Shown here: positions 1 through 30,008 of the stretch, piece by piece
Numbering within the stretch: position 1 is the stretch's first letter
How the letters are laid out: the number at the start of each line of letters is the position of its first letter
IMG/VR virus record: IMGVR_UViG_2778261087_000001
Span: 1-30,286 of that record
DNA from: a virus
Lineage: Duplodnaviria; Heunggongvirae; Uroviricota; Caudoviricetes
Length of the DNA stretch: 30,286 bases
Reading direction: 5' to 3' (one strand)
Position numbers and translations under genes: made by a program
Notes under the pieces: model-generated
Database searches by the model: none
Seen by the model: the letters and a program-made list of their open reading frames with translations, nothing else
What the model was told of the DNA's origin: nothing

Positions 1-455
1 TGGCTACACAATAACAAGGGAAGACTCACTCGTGGCTGCAACCCTGCTTACTCAAAATCTATTCACACATGGTTACGCTTTGGGGAAATTATGAGGGGAT
101 CTCTCAGTGCTCAGCAGAATCCCCCACATCCTGAAGGAGGTGTATTCAGACAGGCATCCCACCTGACTTCGAATGATGATTATTCATCACTATAGAGAGC
201 ATTGATTCTAAGTGTCATATGAAAGTTCCAATTGATATATATCAAACAAAATAACCCTGATTAATGAATTATTACGTTTATCATGTTAATTCATCATTAT
301 TACATCATCATTGTAAATAATTAAATTAACTTCCATAACATTAAAATATGTATCCACTGACGCTTTTTTACATAACGAAGAATTGACCATTTTGTCCTGT
401 TGTGCCTTAATGTAAGTACCGTCCACAGCGTGGGACATACTTCAAGGAACCTTTT

Positions 456-647: not shown

Positions 648-960
648 CGGTTACCTTCTCCACTTTCACAGAACCTAACGGCACTTCGCTGTCGGATGCT
701 TTTGCTCTTTGGAATTATCAAAGCGGCAGATATTCTTTCATCTTAAATTTTACGTCTTTGTCCTGACTGATGTTTATCCTGTTTGGCTGCGAAATAAATA
801 TAAAATTAATATATATGTTGTAATGATATATTTTTATAAATTATTCCCTGCGTGAATTTTAATAAATTTAATCTATCCCTTTATACGCAATACATTTACT
901 TTCCTCTTTTGATGATCTTAAATGTCTTATTTTTCGTAATGTGTATAACAAGGAATAGTG

Positions 961-1476
961 ATGAAATTTAAAAAATGTCTTCTGCCTGTGGCAATGTTAG
1001 CGTCATTCACTCTGGCAGGATGCCAGTCAAATGCTGACGATCATGCCGCCGATGTTTATCAAACCGATCAACTGAATACCAAACAAGAAACTAAAACCGT
1101 TAATATTATTTCCATTCTTCCCGCAAAAGTTGCCGTAGACAACTCCCAAAATAAACGGAACGCACAAGCCTTCGGCGCGCTTATTGGCGCAGTCGCTGGC
1201 GGTGTTATCGGCCACAACGTCGGTTCTGGCAGCAATTCCGGAACGACGGCAGGGGCAGTTGGCGGCGGAGCTGTAGGCGCGGCAGTGGGTTCTATGGTGA
1301 ATGATAAAACCTTAGTGGAAGGTGTTTCTTTAACATATAAGGAAGGCACCAAAGTGTATACCTCTACCCAGGTGGGTAAAGAGTGCCAGTTTACGACAGG
1401 TTTAGCCGTTGTTATTACCACAACGTATAACGAAACGCGTATTCAGCCAAATACTAAATGTCCTGAAAAGAGCTAA
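961..1476 (+). CDS. yfgH: outer-membrane lipoprotein with glycine-zipper region (host)
   Basis: Track ORF 958-1476 starts at GTG; the ATG at 961 has AAGGA 6 nt upstream. Signal peptide ending in lipobox LAGC, Gly/Ala-rich zipper segment; size (172 aa) and position match yfgH. Confidence 0.7.
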   Translation: MKFKKCLLPVAMLASFTLAGCQSNADDHAADVYQTDQLNTKQETKTVNIISILPAKVAVDNSQNKRNAQAFGALIGAVAGGVIGHNVGSGSNSGTTAGAVGGGAVGAAVGSMVNDKTLVEGVSLTYKEGTKVYTSTQVGKECQFTTGLAVVITTTYNETRIQPNTKCPEKS

Positions 1477-1491
1477 TAATCAGGAGGAGTC

Positions 1492-2031
1492 ATGAAGAAA
1501 GTTTTTCTTTGCGCCATCTTGGCCTCCTTAAGCTATCCGGCTATCGCCTCATCATTGCAGGATCAACTCTCTGCTGTAGCAGAAGCTGAACAGCAAGGTA
1601 AAAATGAAGAGCAAAGGCAGCATGACGAATGGGTCGCGGAGCGCAACAGGGAAATCCAGCAAGAGAAGCAACGTCGCGCAAATGCCCAGGCCGCCGCTAA
1701 CAAAAGAGCGGCAACGGCAGCGGCAAATAAGAAAGCTCGTCAGGATAAACTGGACGCCGAAGCCTCTGCGGACAAAAAACGCGATCAAAGTTATGAAGAT
1801 GAGCTACGCAGCTTAGAGATTCAGAAACAAAAACTGGCGCTGGCAAAAGAAGAAGCCCGCGTTAAGCGAGAAAACGAATTTATCGATCAGGAACTGAAGC
1901 ACAAAGCTGCGCAAACCGATGTGGTGCAATCTGAAGCTGACGCCAACAGAAATATGACTGAAGGCGGTCGCGATCTGATGAAAAGCGTGGGCAAAGCAGA
2001 AGAGAACAAATCGGACAGCTGGTTTAATTAA
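1492..2031 (+). CDS. yfgI: secreted coiled-coil protein (host)
   Basis: Strong RBS AGGAGG before ATG 1492; N-terminal signal peptide, charged Ala/Gln/Lys-rich helical body; 179 aa as expected for yfgI downstream of yfgH. Confidence 0.7.
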   Translation: MKKVFLCAILASLSYPAIASSLQDQLSAVAEAEQQGKNEEQRQHDEWVAERNREIQQEKQRRANAQAAANKRAATAAANKKARQDKLDAEASADKKRDQSYEDELRSLEIQKQKLALAKEEARVKRENEFIDQELKHKAAQTDVVQSEADANRNMTEGGRDLMKSVGKAEENKSDSWFN

Positions 2032-2070
2032 TCGATGTTAGTAACTTCAAGCCTATGATTCTTGAAGATA

Positions 2071-2102
2071 AAAAACCCTCTGTAGTAACAGAGGGTTTTG
2101 TT
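2071..2102. terminator. bidirectional rho-independent terminator
   Basis: A-run, stem CCCTCTG (2076-2082) / CAGAGGG (2089-2095), loop TAGTAA, then TTTTGTT; sits between convergent yfgI and the guaA remnant. Confidence 0.6.
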
Positions 2103-2125
2103 CATTCATAGTGCAGGGATTAAAA

Positions 2126-2146
2126 TCATTCCCACTCAATTATTTA
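2126..2146 (-). other. guaA 3'-end remnant / candidate att core at prophage boundary
   Basis: Minus strand reads ATT GAG TGG GAA TGA (IEWE-stop), the conserved GMP synthase C-terminus, preceded by an in-frame TAA two codons upstream, so only the last few codons are present. Confidence 0.4.
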
Positions 2147-2227
2147 CGACACGCATAACCAATTGACTGATAACAACTTTCTGCAACATGATTTTCACCG
2201 TACCGTTTTATATACCGTCACCGAAAA

Positions 2228-2725
2228 TCAGTACCACGATTTTTGCTTCTTCAGTGAATCGTATTGCTGTTCGCAGGATTCTCCTGCAATCCGATACTTT
2301 TCAGCCTCAGCTGCTGTTGCGTTGTAAACTCGATTGCTTTCTTCAAGCATGTCGGCGAGCACACCGATGACCTTGCTGGCTGGCGTGCCAGTGGGGAAAG
2401 ATCCGGTATAGTGTTCGGCGAGTCGCTTGGTTTTGTCAAGCTCGGCGCGCAGGCTGTCAGCAGCGGCATTAGCATGCTCAGCATCAACACGCGCCACATC
2501 GATACGGGATTGTGCTTCACGTTCAATTTGTGTTTTCTCCTGATCACGTTGTGACCTAGCCTTATCATTAGCCTGTTTCTGATCTTCCTGTGCCTGCGCA
2601 TACCCGGCGTCGTACTGACGACTGCCGTGTGCATTCCAGGCTACAACTCCTGATATGACCAGAACAGCAAGCATCGCCATGATAACCAACTGTTTCCAGT
2701 ATGCTTTTACGAATGCCCAGATCAT
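2228..2725 (-). CDS. i-spanin (Rz-like lysis protein)
   Basis: N-terminal transmembrane helix then charged coiled-coil region; ATGA overlap with endolysin stop; last gene of the lysis cassette. Confidence 0.6.
2251..2499 (-). CDS. o-spanin (Rz1-like lipoprotein) embedded in Rz in another frame
   Basis: Alternative frame inside Rz encodes [17 protein letters not shown] (lipobox LTAC) followed by a Pro/Ser-rich mature region; start codon ambiguous (ATG at 2499, 2484 or 2475), no clear RBS. Confidence 0.5.
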   Translation of the reverse strand: MWRVLMLSMLMPLLTACAPSLTKPSDSPNTIPDLSPLARQPARSSVCSPTCLKKAIEFTTQQQLRLKSIGLQENPANSNTIH

Positions 2726-3351
2726 ACCGCCAGCGCCTTACTGGCAGTGATGTACCGAGCGCGCCGGTCGTCGATGCCGTTCCTGCCACCATTGATAATC
2801 AGAGTTACACGTGCAATATCGCCGGTATACTTCATGCAACCTTTGCTGGAGAAGAACCACGCCGCGCTACGAGCCGCGTATTCGTCCTGCGCCAACAGTT
2901 CAGGATTCTCCAGCAGGTCCACTTTCAGGCCGTTTCCGCAATCACGATAGTTATTCAAACCGGTAATCTGGATAAGTCCGCGGCCACGGTAATTCCAGCC
3001 ATCACCAGAGGCATTGTTCCCCATGCGTTTGCTGTACACCAGATTGGCGATCGCTCTCTGGCGCTCGAGTGGCAATGGTGGTTCACCAGCACGGCGACCA
3101 AGTGCATTAGCCTGTCCCTGAGTGAGACGCCCAGCCCGAACGAAGTTAGCCAGTCCGGTGACGCTGTAGTTGAAATTTTCCTGCAACCGGGTGAATCCAC
3201 CAGACTCATGCCCGACCTGAGCAATAAACATTGCCTGATCTTCAGCTTTGCTGATACCAAACTCTTTCATCGCAGAAGTTATATGCGAGAACCAGCGTGC
3301 GGCCAGCGCCTCGCTAATACCAGCAGCTCGCTGGAATTGTTTAATCTCCAT
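2722..3351 (-). CDS. endolysin, glycoside hydrolase family 19 (chitinase-like) type
   Basis: 209 aa with [12 protein letters not shown]...GRGLIQITG motifs typical of GH19 phage endolysins; sits between holin-like genes and Rz. Confidence 0.8.
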
Positions 3352-3649
3352 GTTTAGACCTCGTTATTTTAAAAATCTGCACGACGTTACCGCGCGTTTT
3401 AATAACCGCAGCTAGCATGACAGCGTTGATAATGACCTCAGATAAATCCACAGCCATTGGCGTACGTAACCAGATTGCATAGGCGACACGAACAGGAATA
3501 CTGGCCGCAGCAACAATCAGGAAATAAGCAAGCCATCCTCCCCACCTTCGGTGTTGAGAGCCGTTACGCCGGAATGTGACAACGCGAATTGCTATGCCAG
3601 TGCAAATAACTGCATTGGTGATAAGCAAAAAAAACTCATGCGTTACCAT
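3341..3649 (-). CDS. holin-like / lysis-associated membrane protein
   Basis: 102 aa, about three predicted transmembrane segments, overlaps the endolysin start by 11 nt; GGAG 8 nt upstream of ATG. Confidence 0.5.
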
Positions 3650-4040
3650 CGTCTTTTCTCCCCGGAATTAACTCGCGTGGATTATCGGAACGGTGATAAA
3701 GCCATATACCAATTCGCACAGCGACAATTGACGACACAAATGCGCCAGCAGAGAAGACGATCCCTTTCTCGAAAGAGTCCTGCGTGATGGTAGGGATCAG
3801 GCTGGCTACACCGATAAGGATGGATGCTGTAGGTTTGTAAAAGAGAAGGCCGCAGAGGAAGCTGAGCATAGACAGGAGAACCCGGCGATGAATGGGATAC
3901 TCGATGGCTGAGGTAACAAAAATTACCGCCCCAGCCAAAGCTCCCAAAGCCACCTCTGGAGGAACCCCTGCTATCACCGCAGCAAGAGAACTCGCACTAA
4001 GCCACTGATTTAAAGACTCACTGGTTAGCTGAACTGACAT
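3636..4040 (-). CDS. holin-like membrane protein
   Basis: Multi-pass hydrophobic protein with charged C-terminus; track ORF begins at GTG 4049, but ATG at 4040 has GGTG 6 nt upstream and is preferred. Confidence 0.5.
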   Translation of the reverse strand: MSVQLTSESLNQWLSASSLAAVIAGVPPEVALGALAGAVIFVTSAIEYPIHRRVLLSMLSFLCGLLFYKPTASILIGVASLIPTITQDSFEKGIVFSAGAFVSSIVAVRIGIWLYHRSDNPRELIPGRKDDGNA

Positions 4041-4104
4041 AAAAAACACCGTTTAATGTGCATAAAGAATCCCCTTAGTTGGTTAGTTCATCATACACAA
4101 TAAA

Positions 4105-4261: not shown

Positions 4262-6031
4262 TTAAACAACAATTTTAAGGAAGTTTGAAGCATCCTTATA
4301 AATGGTGCCCGCGGGGGCGCCGTTTATCTCCTCAAGCGTTTTTACGTTCTTCAAAACCACCTTGCCATCTTCCAGAAATTCAATGCATGGTGCGTCGTTG
4401 TTCATTTTTATTTTCAACGAACCAACAGCACTATCTCCGTTTCCGCTTATCCATTCAAGTGACGCAATAGGAAGTGCATTGCCGTTGTGATCTGTCCCTT
4501 GTAGCAAGATCCTTCCAGTTCCTACCCCTGGTATTCTGATAGCTGCGCGACCCCCATCCTCTAAAACTACTTCCAAAATTTCTTTAGGATATTTTGTGTG
4601 CAGCCCTACACGCGACGTGCTCGACAGCCCACCACCACCAGGGACGACGGCAATACCTGGAATAAGCGATTCTGCAAAAAGCATCACTGAGTCTTTATGT
4701 GGATTGACTGCTGGGTTACCGTCATTAATGCCGCCCCCGATCGCAATCGAACCACCATAAGCCTGAATATTCTTACCTACAGCAAAAGAGCCATCTCCTG
4801 CCGCGCGAGTTTGATATCCAATGGCCGCCGCACCAATGCCATCACTTGCAACCCCGCCGGGGTCTGTAGTGTATCCCGGTCTGGCTTGCGTAAAATAACC
4901 TGTTGTAAAAGCCGCCCTTGAAAGCGCTTCCGTTTCTTCACAGAATGCGGCAGATTTTGCGCCAAGAGCAATGACATTTTTCCCAAATGCAAAAGAGCAG
5001 TACCCCTCAGCATTTGGTGAGGTAATATGATCTGGGTCCCCAGTGGCAGAACCAGCACCACCGGCAATAGATGCCACGCCGTACGTAACGCAGTCATGCC
5101 CGAAAGTTGTGGTGTATACCGCGAATGACGCACCGTTTCTGTTAAAAGATGCTGAGTAATCACCGATAAGAGCCGGGTTACACCATGAATTTCTCGGTGT
5201 AGGCAAGCCTCTCCAGAAGTTCTTTTCATCGTCAAGTGGTAGGAGATCGGCACCACCAATTCTCAGCCAACCTTTATCCTTATCAAAAGAAAAAGTGACG
5301 CCATCGGTTAAAGTAGATCCAACCGGTATACCGTAATTAACTTTTGTGCCAATCCTCTTAAGCCCGTCAGGTTGCGCCAGCAATAACAGAACATCTGCTG
5401 CACTACCGCTCTCAGGCAAGACCATAATGGACTCACCTGCATAATCATATGCATGGATCATATTTGCACGTTCTGCAGCAGGAGGGAGTTGCCGCGTAAA
5501 TGACTCTGGAACCCTTAACGTGTGCAGATAGTTGTTGTTACTAATCGTGTCTACATAATTTTTAGTGGCAGCATCCTGCGGGTCTCGTGGGTCGCGCAGG
5601 TTGCGAATGTAATTCCCCAGCGCGTCGTACCAGTTAGCGATGGTTGATGGCTTGCGCAGCGCCAAGGCAAACCAACTGCGAACCTGCTGGATCAGCATCG
5701 TCAGTTTATCGAATGCGTCTTCATGCACCTCAGCGAAGAACTTACCCTGGTTGCGCAGATCGGTATCCTGCGTAACCGGTAGCTCTCTTGATATAGAAAT
5801 CTGATAACCGTTAGCCAACGCCTTCGACAGAATTACATTGCCGCCGTTATACCCTCCCGCACCAGTGACTATGTAATCAGTATCAAGAATCAGCTCTGTG
5901 ATGTTCTCGTTCAGGTCAACAACCTGCACTACTAAATCAGATTTCTGGAAAATCCTGAAGGTATAAGGGAATGCCGTTGTAACACCGTTACCTGTGTATT
6001 CGTTGTGGTCAACTTCGGTTGAGACCGTCAT
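4262..6031 (-). CDS. tail fiber / tailspike protein with T7 gp17-like N-terminal adaptor domain
   Basis: 589 aa; N-terminus (YTGNGVTTAFPYTF...DLVVQVVDL...ITELILDTDY) resembles the conserved podovirus tail-fiber N-terminal domain; Gly/Ala-rich C-terminal part with lower GC at the 3' end; GGAG RBS. Confidence 0.7.
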   Translation of the reverse strand: MTVSTEVDHNEYTGNGVTTAFPYTFRIFQKSDLVVQVVDLNENITELILDTDYIVTGAGGYNGGNVILSKALANGYQISISRELPVTQDTDLRNQGKFFAEVHEDAFDKLTMLIQQVRSWFALALRKPSTIANWYDALGNYIRNLRDPRDPQDAATKNYVDTISNNNYLHTLRVPESFTRQLPPAAERANMIHAYDYAGESIMVLPESGSAADVLLLLAQPDGLKRIGTKVNYGIPVGSTLTDGVTFSFDKDKGWLRIGGADLLPLDDEKNFWRGLPTPRNSWCNPALIGDYSASFNRNGASFAVYTTTFGHDCVTYGVASIAGGAGSATGDPDHITSPNAEGYCSFAFGKNVIALGAKSAAFCEETEALSRAAFTTGYFTQARPGYTTDPGGVASDGIGAAAIGYQTRAAGDGSFAVGKNIQAYGGSIAIGGGINDGNPAVNPHKDSVMLFAESLIPGIAVVPGGGGLSSTSRVGLHTKYPKEILEVVLEDGGRAAIRIPGVGTGRILLQGTDHNGNALPIASLEWISGNGDSAVGSLKIKMNNDAPCIEFLEDGKVVLKNVKTLEEINGAPAGTIYKDASNFLKIVV

Positions 6032-6083
6032 GTTAAATCTCCAGATAGTCGCAGCACCCGTTGCGCCGCATATCCGGTTATTC

Positions 6084-6150
6084 TATTACCTTAAAAACCA
6101 CATATGGATAGATAACCCATAAATACGAACAGATATTACCTTTCAGGTGA
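6084..6150 (+). promoter_or_regulatory. bipartite intergenic motif, copy B (TATTACC-N7-CCACATATGGAT ... TATTACCTTTCAGGTGA)
   Basis: TATTACC at 6084-6090, CCACATATGG at 6098-6107, TATTACCTTTCAGGTGA at 6134-6150; about 75 bp upstream of the plus-strand ORF at 6227. Confidence 0.5.
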
Positions 6151-6226
6151 TTCGCAAAACGTGCTGGATAGCAAACAAATTATTTGATACTGTATATTTA
6201 TACAGTTATTGCATGGAGAAGATAAG

Positions 6227-6484
6227 ATGCAGCAGTATCACTATCCACTGGAAGACGGATTTACCGAAAGGATTCACACGCCGGGAGGCGTCAGGTCACT
6301 GGTGGAGGGATCGCACTTGATGAAATTACTACGGGATCTCGATAAGGATGGATTTAATGTCGATGGCCCACTTGCCGAACTGACTGCACTGATTAACTAC
6401 GTCACCAGCTCACAGATGTCTATGCAGGATCTGCAAACACATCTCGACTATTGTGCCGAACAATTACGAAAACAAACCAGATAA
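6227..6484 (+). CDS. hypothetical small protein, paralog of the Bro-N protein C-terminal domain
   Basis: Track ORF starts at TTG 6209; ATG 6227 has GGAG 8 nt upstream. Shares the pattern H-x-P-G-GV...L-E-S-LM-LL...DG-V-G-AELT...QTH with residues about 160-228 of the downstream Bro-N protein. Confidence 0.5.
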   Translation: MQQYHYPLEDGFTERIHTPGGVRSLVEGSHLMKLLRDLDKDGFNVDGPLAELTALINYVTSSQMSMQDLQTHLDYCAEQLRKQTR

Positions 6485-6796
6485 GGTTTGCAATTACCAA
6501 CTGGAGTGCTTATATTTACCTTTGCGGTAAATTTACATCGCACTCCTCTTGTGCCATAGTAATCGGGCACTGGCAAAATCCAGTGCCGGGATTGGCGTCC
6601 CGGGTTACTACAGAGGCACATATGCCGCATAAGCGGTTTTTTTATGTGTAAAGCGCACCTATTCTATGGTGGGCTGTGTGGGGGCACCGAAAGGTGCGCC
6701 GGGTCCTTTGTAGCCGGTTACGCCAACCCTGTACAGTTCACCACCAACCGATTGGCGTCGGTAGTGGTGATTAACCTAACTACAAAGGTGATCACT

Positions 6797-7483
6797 ATGA
6801 CTGCTAACGTAACCCCATCTGTTTTTCATTTTGAATCAGAAGCAACCATTCGAGCCATTGTTATTGATGGAAATCCTTGGTTTGTTGCCAAAGACGTTAT
6901 TAAAGCTCTTCAACTGACAAACCCCACTATGTCAATAAAATCTCTTGATGATGATGAAAGGGCTAAATTTAACTTAGGCCGTCAAGGCGAAACCAATATT
7001 ATCAACGAGTCAGGCCTCTACACACTGATCCTCCGCTGCCGCGACGCAGTGACACCAGGCACTATCCCCTACCGCTTTCGTAAATGGGTTACAGGTGAGG
7101 TTCTTCCTCAGATCCGCCGCACCGGAAGTTACATTAAAAACTCGCTCCCGCAGGAAGAACGCATAAAGATGGTTGCCGACCAGGTAGCCAGCGCCACAGC
7201 ATCAGCAGTGATGCAGGCAATGAAGGTAGAGAACAAAACCTACAGCGCCCCACTGAAGCCCGGCTACCGCAGCCTGATTCATTCGCCGTCTGGTGTTCTT
7301 GGACTGACGGAGAACTCACTGCTGATGAATCTGCTGAACCAGTTACAGGACGACGGGCATGACGTATCGGGCGCGGCGGCGGAGCTGACCACCATGTTCT
7401 GCTACATCGTCGGTGTGAGCAAATGCCTGCGTGATATCCAGACGCACGCGGAGTACATCAGCGACAAAGCAGGATTCTTCTGA
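6797..7483 (+). CDS. Bro-N domain protein (antirepressor-like)
   Basis: From ATG 6797 (AAGGTG 6 nt upstream): VFHFE...IRAIVIDGNPWFVAKDVIKAL...SLDDDERAKF is a typical Bro-N signature; the track extension upstream to 6644 has no RBS and is rejected. Confidence 0.7.
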   Translation: MTANVTPSVFHFESEATIRAIVIDGNPWFVAKDVIKALQLTNPTMSIKSLDDDERAKFNLGRQGETNIINESGLYTLILRCRDAVTPGTIPYRFRKWVTGEVLPQIRRTGSYIKNSLPQEERIKMVADQVASATASAVMQAMKVENKTYSAPLKPGYRSLIHSPSGVLGLTENSLLMNLLNQLQDDGHDVSGAAAELTTMFCYIVGVSKCLRDIQTHAEYISDKAGFF

Positions 7484-13269: not shown

Positions 13270-15779
13270 TGCGGAATATCTCCGGAGAATCTCTGACGCT
13301 TCTGTGTCAGATTAAGAACAACGGGAGAACCATCATCTTTCAGCAGATAACCAGTACCAAGTTTCACCAGGTACTGACTATCGCCGTAACTTTGCAAACC
13401 ATACTGACCAGGCGGTGTTTTTATCCCAGAGCCGACAACTTGTTCATTCCAAGCCTGATTAACCTGCTTATCGAATTGCTCTGCAGACATTCCCCACGGC
13501 AAAAGGACATTCCCCATTCCGTTATAGTCATGCACGCCACCTGTAGCTACGTTAACAGCCTGTTTCCAGACATCATTGTCAATTTCGCCTGATACCACGC
13601 CTTTTTTCGCCATCACACCAGCGTAATAATCCTTTGCGATCTCGTATGCCATTGATGCCCCCTGAGCGTCACCAGCAAATGCATCCTTCACCATGTCAGA
13701 AAACTCAAGGCGAAGATCAGCATCTTTAGGCATCGGAATACCTTTCGCATCATCAGTACCTTTACGAGCCGCCGCGCCAGCAAGAATTGTCTGCGCAGCG
13801 GTTTCAGGAGACACGGAAACATCCGGATTAAACCAGTTTTTTTCTGCCAAAATACCACCAGGCTTATCCATCAGTATCCCGGCAACGGCAGCAGATGGAG
13901 CGTTGGCACTGATCTGCTGTAGTGCTGACATATACACCTGCCCACCACCAGTGCTCTGCCTGATGGTATCGAGATATGCTGCCTGTTGGGAAACGGGCGC
14001 ATCACGAAAGAAAACACCGATCTGATTGGCCTCGTCTTTGGAAAAGAACGTCAGTGGAGTGCCATATGACTTAGCAAGGTCACTGACCTGAGCGGCACGC
14101 AAGGCAACGCTCTGTCCAAAGTTATCCTTATTGCTCATGTCGATAGGCTTTGCCTGTCCGGAGGCAAGAGAGAACTGCACAGGATCCGACTGCCGCTGCT
14201 TTATCACCTGATTTGCAGCCGAAACAACGTTGTCATAAAGAGCTGCACGAGACGCATAACCCTCCCCTGTCTCACCAGTATCCGGACGTAATTGCTCAAC
14301 ATATGCGGTAATGCTGCTTGTCGGCATGTTGCGGAAAGAGCCTATATACTGTCCGGCGATCTGCGTATTTCTGAACTCGGTATATCGCAGGTTTCCTTCT
14401 CTGACGCCATAAGCTGCAATAAAATCAGCCTCACCAGGTGGATTAGGAAATTCAACGCCACGCATATACGCAGCCGTCGCATCGCGAACCTGGCTGTCAA
14501 TCATCGTTTTATATTCAGCCTGCTGCTGCCGACGCAGTTGATCCGCCTGTCGCATAAAACTTGCCTGCGCCTCAGGAGATGCCGCATCGAATGCTGCATT
14601 ACCGGTATAGCGTTTGGTGTTGGTTGGAATTGTTGATAAACCAAGTGCTGCACTGACACCAGCAGTTAACTGCTGATCACTGTATGGCTGGCTACCGTTC
14701 TCATGATGGATAATGGCTGCACAAAGCGCCTTCAGGGTATCAGGATTAGATGCATCGAGAGGATCATCAGCAGAAACGCCAAGTTGTTCGCACACTGCTT
14801 TGATATACGACATAGTATCATTTTTATCAGTAGGCGGTGCCCAGCGATTAATTATCTCGCTGACGGTATCAATACCCTGCCGCTGATACGACATCAGGTT
14901 TCGCCCTAATGCACGAATCCCGTGTTCAGGTGTTTCGAATTTAGCAAATCGACCATCATCACCGGTCTGGCCTACCCACGGATTAGTTTTGCTGTATTCG
15001 AGATTTCCTGGGTTATTGTTGCGTATGCCACGGGCACGCTCGGAAGAGTCACTATCTGCTACAGCACGGCGAGCTCCAGCAGCAGTATCACTTAACTCGC
15101 CATTACTTTGGATGAATGCGGTCGCATTGTTTGCCGACCACTGGGACAATGCGGCATCAGCAACCTTCTCTTTAAACTCGATTTTCTTGGCCTGGATTTG
15201 CTCGTCGCTCCAGCCATGCGCAATGCCGTAATCCTCAATTTGCTGGAAAGTTTGCTTATTAGCCAATACGTATGCGGCGTTGTCGCCATACAATGCTGCG
15301 GCATTTTTACCATTGTTCAGCAGCGTCGCCTGAAACTGGCCTTCTTCGTAGGCATTTATTTGCCCTATCTCGTGCCGCCCGGCCTGCGTAGTGAACTGAA
15401 TGCGCTGCTGCTGCGCCTGCTGCATGAAAGCATTACGAGCCTGTTCATCCGGCAGCGACATAGCCAGTTGCTCGACCTGGGCATCAAACTGCTGCGTATA
15501 CTCCTGACCTTTTCCAATAGCATTTTTCCCTTTCAGGTTAAGCAAACCTGTTTCAGGGTTATTCAGCAGATCGCTGCTTATCTGGCTTAAGCTAAGAGAA
15601 GCATCCTGAGCCATAGCAACATTCGCACGCTGTTTTGCCTGCGCAATAATACCTGCATATTGCTCTGCAACATCGCCAAGTACATCACCGACATTTGGTG
15701 TCTGAAACGATGAGAATCCCTGCGTCGAAATCCCTCTGCTCTGAACCTGACGGCCCGATGTTGTTGGTACAACTGGCAT
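13266..15779 (-). CDS. internal virion / ejection protein (837 aa)
   Basis: Large Gln/Ala-rich protein in the core-protein block; 4-nt overlap with the next gene. Confidence 0.55.
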   Translation of the reverse strand: MPVVPTTSGRQVQSRGISTQGFSSFQTPNVGDVLGDVAEQYAGIIAQAKQRANVAMAQDASLSLSQISSDLLNNPETGLLNLKGKNAIGKGQEYTQQFDAQVEQLAMSLPDEQARNAFMQQAQQQRIQFTTQAGRHEIGQINAYEEGQFQATLLNNGKNAAALYGDNAAYVLANKQTFQQIEDYGIAHGWSDEQIQAKKIEFKEKVADAALSQWSANNATAFIQSNGELSDTAAGARRAVADSDSSERARGIRNNNPGNLEYSKTNPWVGQTGDDGRFAKFETPEHGIRALGRNLMSYQRQGIDTVSEIINRWAPPTDKNDTMSYIKAVCEQLGVSADDPLDASNPDTLKALCAAIIHHENGSQPYSDQQLTAGVSAALGLSTIPTNTKRYTGNAAFDAASPEAQASFMRQADQLRRQQQAEYKTMIDSQVRDATAAYMRGVEFPNPPGEADFIAAYGVREGNLRYTEFRNTQIAGQYIGSFRNMPTSSITAYVEQLRPDTGETGEGYASRAALYDNVVSAANQVIKQRQSDPVQFSLASGQAKPIDMSNKDNFGQSVALRAAQVSDLAKSYGTPLTFFSKDEANQIGVFFRDAPVSQQAAYLDTIRQSTGGGQVYMSALQQISANAPSAAVAGILMDKPGGILAEKNWFNPDVSVSPETAAQTILAGAAARKGTDDAKGIPMPKDADLRLEFSDMVKDAFAGDAQGASMAYEIAKDYYAGVMAKKGVVSGEIDNDVWKQAVNVATGGVHDYNGMGNVLLPWGMSAEQFDKQVNQAWNEQVVGSGIKTPPGQYGLQSYGDSQYLVKLGTGYLLKDDGSPVVLNLTQKRQRFSGDIPQ

Positions 15780-15791
15780 CTTATTATCCCC

Positions 15792-16331
15792 TTATCGACC
15801 GGTTGGAGTGCCAACAGCAGCAGAAATCGGCGCAGCCTTCTGAGAGAATGGGCTCCACGTTCCTCCGCCCATCTGGTATGCACCGTATGCTTTTAGTGGT
15901 GCCGTTAACAAAGTGCTGGTCATCGATGATTTAGCAGCCGACTGAGCAGCATCCCCCTGTGCCTGAGCATTCATTCCCTGAACCTGATACCCATATGCCT
16001 CACGCTGAGCATTATTCACTGTCGTTAACGCATCAAGAGTGCCGAACTGAGCATTATCCGCAAAAACGTCAAGAGCTGTTCCGCTACTTAATTCCGCACC
16101 GGTAGCCCCCATAGTGGCCGCCGCAGTACCTGAGCGTTGACGCATTTCACGACGACGCTGATCCGCTTCAATATTCCCACGATTGATTGAATCCTGTGCC
16201 TGAGCTTCAGCAATTTCAGCATTCCGATCAGCTATGGCTGACTGGTATTTTGCCTGCTTGCTCTGGCTGTACATTGACGCGGCTGTGGATGCCACTGTGA
16301 CGGCAACCAAAGCGATGGCTGGGTTACACAT
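15792..16331 (-). CDS. internal virion protein with N-terminal membrane anchor (T7 gp14-like position)
   Basis: 179 aa; N-terminal hydrophobic helix, Ala/Gln-rich body; sits between the gp13-position and large core genes. Confidence 0.5.
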   Translation of the reverse strand: MCNPAIALVAVTVASTAASMYSQSKQAKYQSAIADRNAEIAEAQAQDSINRGNIEADQRRREMRQRSGTAAATMGATGAELSSGTALDVFADNAQFGTLDALTTVNNAQREAYGYQVQGMNAQAQGDAAQSAAKSSMTSTLLTAPLKAYGAYQMGGGTWSPFSQKAAPISAAVGTPTGR

Positions 16332-25399: not shown

Positions 25400-25476
25400 G
25401 TGGCATTAGCTCAGTCGGACAGAGCAACCGCCTTCTAAGCGGTTGGTCGCAGGTTCGAATCCTGCATGCCACGCCA
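25400..25476 (+). tRNA. tRNA-Arg (anticodon TCT)
   Basis: 77 nt; 7-bp acceptor stem GTGGCAT/ATGCCAC, D arm GCTC...GAGC, anticodon stem ACCGC/GCGGT with loop CTTCTAA, T arm GCAGG-TTCGAAT-CCTGC, discriminator G, CCA end; acceptor stem differs from host argU as recalled. Confidence 0.85.
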
Positions 25477-25674: not shown

Positions 25675-26055
25675 ATGAACGACCAGCAAATCGAAAAAGA
25701 AATCGTTGAGAAAGGCAAAACGGCACCGCGAATCACCCCGCAGCACATCGAAGATGTGATTAAAAGCGAGCATTACTTTACTGCTTATGATGGACGAAAT
25801 GGTGCCATTTCCAGCAACGAATATTGTGGCAGAGAAAAACCAGAAGAAGGCGATCGTGATTTATCACCATTGAAGTTGCTCACTTTCTGCGTACTGGTGC
25901 TGAAGAATGGCTTCACCGTCACCGGAGAGAGTGCCTGTGCAAGCCCGGAAAATTTTGATGCAGAAATTGGTCGGAAGATTGCCCGGCAGAATGCTGTAAA
26001 CAAAATCTGGATGCTCGAAGGTTACTTGCTGAAGCAGAAGTTAAGCGAGCAATAA
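25675..26055 (+). CDS. phage Gp49-like protein (function unknown)
   Basis: 126 aa, AAGGTGA RBS; segment LTFCVLVLKNGFTVTGESACASPENFD...IWMLEGYLLK matches the Gp49-like family as recalled. Confidence 0.55.
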   Translation: MNDQQIEKEIVEKGKTAPRITPQHIEDVIKSEHYFTAYDGRNGAISSNEYCGREKPEEGDRDLSPLKLLTFCVLVLKNGFTVTGESACASPENFDAEIGRKIARQNAVNKIWMLEGYLLKQKLSEQ

Positions 26056-26059
26056 CACC

Positions 26060-26071
26060 GTGACATGTCAC
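26060..26071. repeat. 12-bp perfect palindrome GTGACATGTCAC (copy 2 of 3)
   Basis: Exact palindrome 5 nt after the gp49-like stop codon and just before its terminator. Confidence 0.6.
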
Positions 26072-26075
26072 AAAC

Positions 26076-26102
26076 AGCCAGCCGATGAGCTGGCTTTGTT
26101 TT
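26076..26102 (+). terminator. rho-independent terminator
   Basis: AGCCAGC-CGATGA-GCTGGCT hairpin followed by TTGTTTT. Confidence 0.65.
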
Positions 26103-26145
26103 ATCCTCACCAGAGGATATCAGCAGTATTATCCCCACCAGCGGA

Positions 26146-28288: not shown

Positions 28289-28522
28289 TCAAAGTCCATC
28301 AAATTCATCGTAAAAACTCTCGTCAAGATACCCTTCCCATTTACCGCGAATGAAAATTACATCCTCGCCGCAAGGGTGCTGACTGTCGATAACTATATCC
28401 CTCCTGGCGCAACCATACTTATGCATGAGAAATTTAACCTCTTTCGGAAAATTTGCTGAGTTATCTCTCATATCTTCAAGGTCGTAGCGTATTTTTGGCA
28501 TAACACCTTCGTGACATGTCAC
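28289..28522 (-). CDS. hypothetical protein
   Basis: Track ORF with GTG start inside the palindrome; alternative ATG at 28501 (MPKIRYD...) has AAGGTG only about 2 nt upstream; start uncertain. Confidence 0.45.
   Translation of the reverse strand: MTCHEGVMPKIRYDLEDMRDNSANFPKEVKFLMHKYGCARRDIVIDSQHPCGEDVIFIRGKWEGYLDESFYDEFDGL
28511..28522. repeat. 12-bp perfect palindrome GTGACATGTCAC (copy 3 of 3)
   Basis: Exact palindrome overlapping the stop codon of the 113-aa gene and the 5' end of the next gene. Confidence 0.6.
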
Positions 28523-28860: not shown

Positions 28861-29131
28861 TATTCACCTTTATCGCGTAAACCTTTACCGGTTTATCGCC
28901 GAAGTGCGGATGTGTGATTGTCTTGATTTCATATCCGTCATACGGGACGTCAATTCTGCGGCTGGAATCGTCGCGCTTCGGATATCCCTTTGTGATAATC
29001 AGGCGGTCATACTCCAGGAACATAATTCGCTTATTCCAGTAGTCATTACACAGGCGATACTCTTCCGTTTTCTCTCCGCGAATCATGGCATCGAAGTATT
29101 CACCTTTGACGGCAAGTTGCAGGTTAGCCAT
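28850..29131 (-). CDS. ASCH/DUF3850-like domain protein
   Basis: From ATG 29131 (GGAGGAG RBS): LQLAVKGEYFDAMIRGEKTEEYRLND pattern resembles ASCH-fold phage proteins; track start 29152 rejected. Confidence 0.45.
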   Translation of the reverse strand: MANLQLAVKGEYFDAMIRGEKTEEYRLCNDYWNKRIMFLEYDRLIITKGYPKRDDSSRRIDVPYDGYEIKTITHPHFGDKPVKVYAIKVNIDG

Positions 29132-29388
29132 TACCGCTCCTCCAGTCTCCATACTGCCTGACCAATCCGGCTGGCGTGGGTATCTTTGGATACTGTTCCT
29201 TCATTAGCCATCTCCATAAGAATTTTGCGCAAATCTGCCGAACGCCATTCTTCATCAGGAAATTCCTTCTCCATTGCCAACCGCAGACTCCAGGTTGCCA
29301 TCCTGAATGGATATTCCCCGCCGAGAACTTTCTCTTGCAGGGCTGCACGGGAACGCATCACCTGCAAAACCTTCTCTTGAACATCCAT
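29131..29388 (-). CDS. hypothetical protein (85 aa)
   Basis: Track ORF, 1-nt stop/start overlaps with both neighbours. Confidence 0.45.
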   Translation of the reverse strand: MDVQEKVLQVMRSRAALQEKVLGGEYPFRMATWSLRLAMEKEFPDEEWRSADLRKILMEMANEGTVSKDTHASRIGQAVWRLEER

Positions 29389-30008
29389 TACGTCGCCTCC
29401 TGCGGCGGTTCCGGTAGCGGTATCCAGTGGGTTACATTGCGGCTCTGCGTTTCGAAGAACTCCTCACCATTGCGGACAACATCAAAAAACTCACCGTCTC
29501 GATATTGCGCATAAAGAACGAATGCGCCATCACATAAAATAATTACGTGCTGACCGTCCTCTGGCATTCGCTCACTACAGCTTATCCAACCATCCGGAAT
29601 TACCGGAGAGTTGCCATTTACATCGAAGTTTGGTTCTGCGTCCTGAACTAGGAGGATGTAACCATTCTTGGCTGTATCAAGTTCTAACGCCTCGGTTACG
29701 GTACCGAAATAGCGATTACCTAAATCCGCATCACAAGTGCTTACATCAATGGAAACCTCCATGCCTTCGATTAATTCTGGCAAGTTGTAAGTTTGGCTTA
29801 CAGGCTCTGCTTCCAGTGATGCCAGTGCAATTCGTGCCAGCTCACGCACAACTTCAGGGGGCGCGTAACGGTCATTCAGGTCATCCCACAGGCGTAGCAT
29901 GTTATCGCTACCAGGGTGAACATCATCGTTAGTTCCGGCAAGCGCACTAATAACCTCATCGGCTGCTTCAATAATTTTCTGTGCCTGTTCTCTGGTAATA
30001 GTGGTCAT
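29388..30008 (-). CDS. DUF551-like domain protein
   Basis: 206 aa; acidic N-terminal half; C-terminus ...VTHWIPLPEPP is the characteristic DUF551 ending as recalled. Confidence 0.55.
   Translation of the reverse strand: MTTITREQAQKIIEAADEVISALAGTNDDVHPGSDNMLRLWDDLNDRYAPPEVVRELARIALASLEAEPVSQTYNLPELIEGMEVSIDVSTCDADLGNRYFGTVTEALELDTAKNGYILLVQDAEPNFDVNGNSPVIPDGWISCSERMPEDGQHVIILCDGAFVLYAQYRDGEFFDVVRNGEEFFETQSRNVTHWIPLPEPPQEAT

Follow-up and report, generated by a model that had tools for sequence, protein, structure and literature searches.

Integration of the lambda (Campbell) type into the 3' end of a gene, with phage DNA restoring the gene, is known from P4, P22 and Sf6, which use tRNA genes. 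The attP of the Salmonella phage epsilon15 was reportedly the subject of work by Kropinski and co-workers in 2007. In the case of phage vB_EcoP_ZX5, attP and attB have the core attgagtgggaatgatt, which lies 190 bp away from the int 5' end and occurs at the guaA 3' end; its attB, attL and attR were amplified by PCR and the products verified by Sanger sequencing (PMC9782041). The same core is stated there to be the proved attP of phiV10 and epsilon15, and a second work describes an 'epsilon15 cluster' of integrases that targets the guaA 3' flank (PMC8138268). A phiV10-related prophage inserted in guaA has been found in an O103:H25 outbreak strain (PMC3293862). What we say about the epsilon15 att site is based on its GenBank annotation (AY150271.2) and on two citing papers (PMC9782041, PMC8138268).

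We have analyzed a stretch of 30,286 nucleotides, hereafter the window, in which positions 2124-2140 are almost certainly the hybrid att core produced by the integration of a phiV10/epsilon15-like phage at the guaA 3' end (Table 1). The segment comprises the final four codons of guaA (IEWE), its TGA stop and 2 further bases. Its reverse complement is identical to the published core (PMC9782041); the window thus adds a further example of a feature already on record. A sequence-only reading of the window had suggested that epsilon15-like phages use guaA, and this agrees with the literature, where one paper gives the same 17-bp core (PMC9782041) and another the epsilon15 integrase cluster (PMC8138268).

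Table 1. Coordinates of the features at and around the junction (window positions)
Feature	Position	Strand	Description and basis
yfgI	1492-2031	+	DUF5384, 179 aa; last host gene before the junction; ORF list and RefSeq annotation of matching loci
Host intrinsic terminator	2072-2099		CCCTCTGT-loop-ACAGAGGG, A/T runs on both sides; terminator scan
Host spacer (guaA 3' UTR in the unoccupied site)	2100-2123		Identical to B4103-1
17-bp att core	2124-2140	-	AATCATTCCCACTCAAT; in guaA sense ATTGAGTGGGAATGATT
Codons of the guaA remnant	2126-2146	-	TGA 2126-2128, GAA 2129-2131, TGG 2132-2134, GAG 2135-2137, ATT 2138-2140, ATA 2141-2143, TAA 2144-2146
Proposed 7-bp overlap CCCACTC	2131-2137		Proposed from sequence only
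Predicted IHF-site positions	~2130-2172		Match predicted sites in the epsilon15 record
Integrase-distal attP arm, phage DNA	2141-2227		Directly adjoins the integrase-side flank in genomes of free phages
TAA-ATA closing the remnant frame	2141-2146	-	Within the phage arm
Putative arm-type site ATACCGTCAC	2212-2221		TACCGT half-copy at 2201-2206
Uetakevirus (phiV10/epsilon15-like) prophage body	2141-30286	-	Runs off the right end of the window
Rz-like spanin, first prophage gene	2228-2725	-	DUF2514, 165 aa; Pfam PF10721, E = 3e-23; annotation of NZ_CM163381.1, epsilon15 and phiV10
Remainder of the lysis cassette	2722-4049	-	Annotation of NZ_CM163381.1 and phage records
GH19 endolysin	2722-3351	-	Pfam PF00182
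Holin	3341-3649	-	Annotation
Putative holin or membrane protein	3636-4049	-	Annotation
Tailspike candidate	4262-6031	-	589 aa
tRNA-Arg (anticodon TCT)	25400-25476	Opposite to structural genes	Inside the prophage

The likeness to phiV10 and vB_EcoP_ZX5 is close. The 17-bp core attgagtgggaatgatt is identical and stands at the same point of guaA. Also shared are the integrase-distal arm (TATTTACG..., with ATACCGTCAC) and the gene order Rz-attP-int, and the prophage bodies are 96-97% identical. Unlike these phages, the element in the window is a different mosaic variant, in which the 589-aa tailspike and some moron and early-region segments are unshared, and it is known here from the prophage junction alone and not as a characterized phage. 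With epsilon15 (AY150271.2) it has in common the core, ATACCGTCAC at the same offset from it, an integrase that is 87% identical, and a terminator and an inverted core copy between core and int. The two differ in that the arms are ~84% identical, the stem of the terminator contains one mismatch in epsilon15 (CCCCCTGT), and epsilon15 has Salmonella as host. As in P4, P22 and Sf6, the integrase is a tyrosine integrase with an arm-binding domain, and the gene is left intact, with a short remnant at the other junction, because the attP carries the 3' end of the target gene; in contrast to these three, the target is the protein-coding guaA and no tRNA is involved.

The host side of the junction could be delimited by a megablast search with window 900-3400 as query against 5,426 complete E. 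coli genomes, of which 5,422 matched. Most of these cover positions 1-1241 of the query alone, i.e., up to window 2140, a stretch annotated with yfgH, yfgI and guaA. More than 5,000 E. coli chromosomes that have yfgH, yfgI and guaA in this order are homologous to the window without a break up to 2140, where the homology ends. That yfgI is followed by a convergent guaA, as the sequence-only reading had stated, holds by annotation and sequence for K-12 and for the O27:H7 strain B4103-1. The latter is 100% identical to window 900-2140, including the spacer allele GGGATTAA left of the core, while the K-12 allele has a 2-bp indel relative to the window just left of the core that is unrelated to integration. 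When the guaA side was used as query (positions 5500-7400 of locus L001 of the lysogen NZ_CM163381.1), unoccupied genomes matched just to L001 5933, which is the opposite edge of the core. The two breaks, at 2140 on the yfgI side and at L001 5933 on the guaA side, therefore bracket the 17-bp core to the base.

The comparison of the four att sites gives the same limits. In the attB of B4103-1 the core stands between ...gcagggattaa on the left and ggtagctggcgg... of guaA on the right. The window junction has the B4103-1 host flank on the left and tatttacgacacgc..., of the phage, on the right; the far junction, as found in NZ_CM163381.1, has ...gagttagctgtt on the left (phage, int side) and ggtagctggcgg... 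of guaA on the right; and the attP of epsilon15 has ...gagttagatgta on the left and tatttacaatac... on the right. The core is present as well in the attB of K-12 and in the attP of phiV10. Within L001, AATCATTCCCACTCAAT is found exactly twice, as a direct repeat at 46712-46728 (corresponding to window 2124-2140) and 5917-5933, with the copies 40.8 kb apart. The alignment of 2100-2150 with the guaA end and with the far prophage end (in NZ_CM163381.1), which the sequence-only reading had proposed as a way to define the repeat, thus places the core at 2124-2140. Its start at 2103 was loose: 2100-2123 is host spacer, which differs from attP and from the far junction and so lies outside the repeat, and 2141-2146 is already phage; the presence of a repeated core within the interval stands.

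From window 2141 onward the sequence aligns with the attP regions of phiV10 and epsilon15. We reconstructed an attP of 817 bp by joining the integrase flank, the core and the window from 2141 onward, and 40 phage records, phiV10, epsilon15, SPN1S, PAT1 and Tyrion among them, contain this sequence uninterrupted, the match being full-length in 7 records and extending across the core in ~30 more. A 24-nt string spanning the junction and attP (AATCATTCCCACTCAATTATTTAC) had 0 matches in the species-representative genomes, which says merely that no representative genome has the exact junction.

The other end of the prophage is known from relatives. The closest complete lysogen among the 5,426 complete E. 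coli genomes is NZ_CM163381.1 (L001), 98.2-98.9% identical over most of the window, with a 40.8-kb prophage between yfgI and guaA. The genome from which the window comes is absent from this set, the best match in it having 98.6% identity (NZ_CM163381.1). Its far-end guaA is intact (525 aa, 524/525 identical to K-12, ending in ...PPATIEWE), and next to this gene and the core lies a tyrosine integrase of 416 aa, 87% identical to the Int of epsilon15, in which Pfam recognizes the domains Arm-DNA-bind_3 (PF13356), Phage_int_M (PF22022) and Phage_integrase (PF00589). These domains were tested on the protein of the relative, the int gene being located outside the window. In the prophage of the window the int-guaA end is expected ~12.6 kb beyond the window. 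Part of this distance is covered by a draft contig, ABFPAB010000003.1, found by exact-protein look-up with a 206-aa DUF551 protein, that over 10.9 kb differs from the window by 1 mismatch (99.99% identical). We read it to the equivalent of window position 40008, 9.7 kb past the window, in an MT-A70 methylase gene and ~3 kb before the expected int-guaA end. The early region has the same gene order as in NZ_CM163381.1 (replication genes, repressor region, RecT, PerC, MT-A70), and the contig has 19 kb of further DNA beyond the stretch read. The sequence-only reading had presumed an intact guaA at the far end, and had named its absence there, or that of a matching core repeat, as what would speak against integration; both are present in NZ_CM163381.1, and for the prophage of the window itself, with its far end outside the window, an intact guaA and a second core are to be expected from these relatives.

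The far end of this particular genome does lie beyond the sequence examined, and one could think that the window shows a guaA stump, produced by a deletion or by a non-specific insertion of foreign DNA, with no intact guaA at the other end. We consider this very improbable and have rejected it. The breakpoints equal the published 17-bp core to the base, an integrase adjoins an intact guaA in the closest complete relative and in 568 genomes in all, and the near-identical contig keeps the early gene order of the relative, with its 19 kb more DNA.

Site-specific integration being the preferred reading, the nature of the element is indicated by the DNA to the right of the core. Phage DNA of the phiV10 type starts directly after the guaA-derived bases, as expected from the prophage boundary suggested earlier for this position. 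Besides the lysis genes, the prophage body contains tailspike, virion proteins, portal, terminase, a tRNA-Arg and part of the early region. Window 2141-27000 is 96-97% identical, with 83-86% coverage, to HEMP4, phiv142-3, phiV10 and the O157 typing phages 9 and 10, and 81% identical to Enterobacter phage Tyrion. The taxonomy lines of the phiV10 and epsilon15 records give the genus Uetakevirus. The tRNA-Arg(TCT) is annotated too in NZ_CM163381.1 and in the O157 typing phages 9 and 10. No Pfam match was obtained for the 589-aa tailspike candidate, and segments 6775-7005, 15643-16326, 25684-26145, 28310-28508 and 29131-29988 were unaligned with the closest complete lysogen. The tailspike and the unaligned segments are the typical mosaic variation (receptor-binding, moron or early genes) within this phage group.

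A genuine junction could also belong to a decayed, immobile remnant or to a non-phage guaA island, for example CMGI-3-like, rather than to a functional Uetakevirus. Of the 120 representatives listed, 10 do have a related integrase (52-54% identical) just past guaA, and there are a few pseudogenes in the early region of NZ_CM163381.1. Against this, the large ORFs of the window for virion proteins, portal, terminase and lysis are all open and follow phiV10 collinearly, with 96-97% identity, and the phage arm of the junction matches the attP of free phages, so we give this alternative very little credit.

The guaA remnant at the boundary of this Uetakevirus prophage is small. On the minus strand, window 2126-2140 reads ATT GAG TGG GAA TGA and the translation of 2100-2200 ends in ...S*IIEWE*, which is the IEWE-stop that had been noticed; the GuaA C-terminus is ...GKPPATIEWE both in K-12 and in the lysogen NZ_CM163381.1. 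An in-frame stop had been described two codons upstream, and there is indeed a TAA (2144-2146) followed by ATA (2141-2143) before the I of IEWE. The position directly past the yfgI terminator is likewise correct, the remnant being located 27 bases beyond the stem-loop 2072-2099 found by the terminator scan. The 15-mer ATTGAGTGGGAATGA is a single copy in the window even with one mismatch allowed. The idea of a chance match in intergenic DNA, unrelated to guaA, is natural for just 15 bases, short peptide matches being easily over-read, and it was discarded, as 100 dinucleotide-preserving shuffles yielded 0 matches to the 15-mer, even at one mismatch, and the stretch belongs to a segment with unbroken homology in more than 5,000 E. 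coli chromosomes, where it corresponds to the yfgI-guaA interval. The IEWE-stop stretch is genuine guaA sequence. The remnant, with 5 codons, no start codon and a phage TAA closing the frame, is a non-functional scar and no gene.

With the sequences of all four att sites established to the exact breakpoint, together with the identity of the phage, the family of its integrase, the arm repeats and the published core, we propose that a temperate podophage of the genus Uetakevirus integrated site-specifically, in the Campbell manner, using the 3' end of E. coli guaA as attB. Its attP matches attB exactly over 17 bp, which comprise the final four codons of guaA, its stop and two more bases, and the arm-binding tyrosine integrase would recombine attP and attB within these 17 bp of identity, duplicating the core. 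The product in the window is the integrase-distal junction, made of host arm, core and phage arm, where the host stop codon and 3' UTR are left beside yfgI and joined to phage DNA whose TAA closes the frame. At the integrase-proximal end guaA would stay complete because the phage DNA replaces its last bases with identical ones. Integration need not, then, disrupt guaA. At that end the phage would also contribute a hairpin, together with an intrinsic terminator that is a near-copy of the host one.

Inverted heptamers around a 7-bp centre are the usual layout of the core sites of tyrosine integrases. In the window, CCCACTC is flanked by the imperfect inverted heptamers AATCATT (2124-2130) and AATTATT (2138-2144); the core region reads AATCATT-CCCACTC-AATTATT in attP and AATCATT-CCCACTC-AATGGTA in attB. 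The strand exchange probably takes place in the central CCCACTC (2131-2137), between the inverted heptamers. If this is right, the stop and the last codon of the 'intact' guaA of the lysogen would be phage-derived, and the copy in the window would keep the host stop and 3' UTR, with phage-derived bases from ~2138. Outside the core, the epsilon15 record AY150271.2 annotates ATACCGTCAC four times as integrase binding site, a prediction of the depositor. The copy in the window is offset about +88 to +90 from the core, matching epsilon15, and in the reconstructed attP these putative arm-type repeats occur at positions -367, -132 and +90, counted from the core, and in inverted orientation at -162. 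Their role as arm sites, and that of the IHF sites, is what we infer from predicted binding sites.

A retroregulation of int similar to lambda sib was considered and dropped, because int lies downstream of attP and its transcription leads away from the site; unlike in lambda, the sib-type arrangement is inapplicable.

The terminators at both junctions deserve some attention. The host terminator (2072-2099) forms a 12-bp stem in the RNA folds of both strands and is identical in the unoccupied B4103-1. In the unoccupied site it is common to yfgI and guaA, while here it lies downstream of the prophage lysis genes. Between core and int there is a phage terminator, CCCTCTGTTTTTACAGAGGG followed by a T-run, that is annotated in the epsilon15 and phiV10 records and is located at L001 ~5975-6010 in NZ_CM163381.1. 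Its 8-bp stems are those of the host yfgI/guaA terminator (CCCTCTGTTACTACAGAGGG), with 25/27 bases identical when the A/T runs are included; the two terminators being near-identical, integration thus swaps two near-copies. The guaA terminators of Raoultella, Tatumella, Enterobacter and Citrobacter representatives differ from that of E. coli, which, together with the shared 8-bp stems, suggests that the guaA terminator of E. coli was captured, or is mimicked, by the phage. Citrobacter sp. NCU1 has a related junction that carries the phage terminator. In the lysogen, guaA read-out would be stopped before int by the phage terminator, and the prophage lysis operon would now face the host one.

A second structure involves the stop codon. 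In RNA of guaA sense the core, stop included, pairs with an inverted phage copy ~22 nt downstream to form a 15-16-bp stem (L001 5917-5966; fold -38.1 kcal/mol, z = -6.05), the 5' arm of which corresponds to window 2124-2140. Both mismatches between the arms are G-U compatible in the guaA/late-transcript sense only. The hairpin is annotated as an RNase III site in the GenBank record of epsilon15 (AY150271.2), and its partner arm is absent at the window junction. Lysogen guaA mRNA would then end in the phage hairpin, followed by a terminator with 8-bp stems identical to those of E. coli, and the lysis operon of an unexcised prophage would lose the hairpin and read into the host terminator instead. 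It could be imagined that integration swaps the whole guaA 3' UTR in a way that alters mRNA stability or translation termination, and that the phage lineage once captured an E. coli terminator; judged from sequence comparison and folding, we regard this as an unlikely, speculative extension. If true, it would amount to a quiet lysogenic conversion of purine metabolism via the guaA mRNA. Both the copied terminator and the hairpin at the stop codon offer minor clues to how phages keep their target genes in order.

Prophages of this kind are frequent at guaA. The lysis-side junction was detected (at least 80% of the query) in 512 of the 5,426 complete E. coli genomes and the integrase-side junction in 568, i.e., ~10% of the genomes have such a prophage at this gene. 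The target itself is extremely conserved. A scan with GCNACNATTGAGTGGGAATGA showed that at least 120 species representatives share the same final 15 nt of guaA after GCNACN; they span Pseudomonadota, Bacillota, Bacteroidota, Actinomycetota, Planctomycetota and others. The IEWE-stop string alone therefore identifies no host; it is the flanking yfgI homology that does. Among the matches listed, an integrase 52-54% identical to that of the prophage was located just downstream of guaA in 10 of 120, with two further loci shorter or partial, and the taxa concerned included Pseudomonas, Halopseudomonas, Citrobacter, Candidimonas and others. Several types of element therefore use the site, which fits its known use. 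Being a well-documented integration hot spot, the guaA 3' end opens no new question here. The result is a practical one: the boundary is placed to the base (core 2124-2140, phage from 2141) and the element is identified as a phiV10/epsilon15-type temperate podophage.

Some minor observations can be added. Also among the matches listed, motifs such as TTYCGCGTCTGG, TTCCACGTCTGG and TTGGACGTCCGG recur directly after the guaA stop in unrelated genera, and in several guaA loci the integrase related to the prophage Int (52-54% identity) is only a few hundred bases away. No integrase was found in the stretch examined of the Tatumella guaA loci, which may be scars of guaA-targeting islands. At the other extreme of the window, positions 1-107 are the outside end of an insertion sequence of the IS10/ISVsa5 type (IS4 family), 99% identical to Tn10-bearing plasmids such as R100, and E. 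coli chromosomal homology begins at window 108 throughout. Window 108-116 (TGCTCAGCA) fits NGCTNAGCN, which we take to be the consensus of the IS10 target hot spot. This insertion was absent from the complete E. coli genomes among the matches listed. By the coordinates of NZ_CM163381.1 the insertion point is located 3 bp upstream of the pdeF start codon, and the expression of pdeF may therefore be affected.
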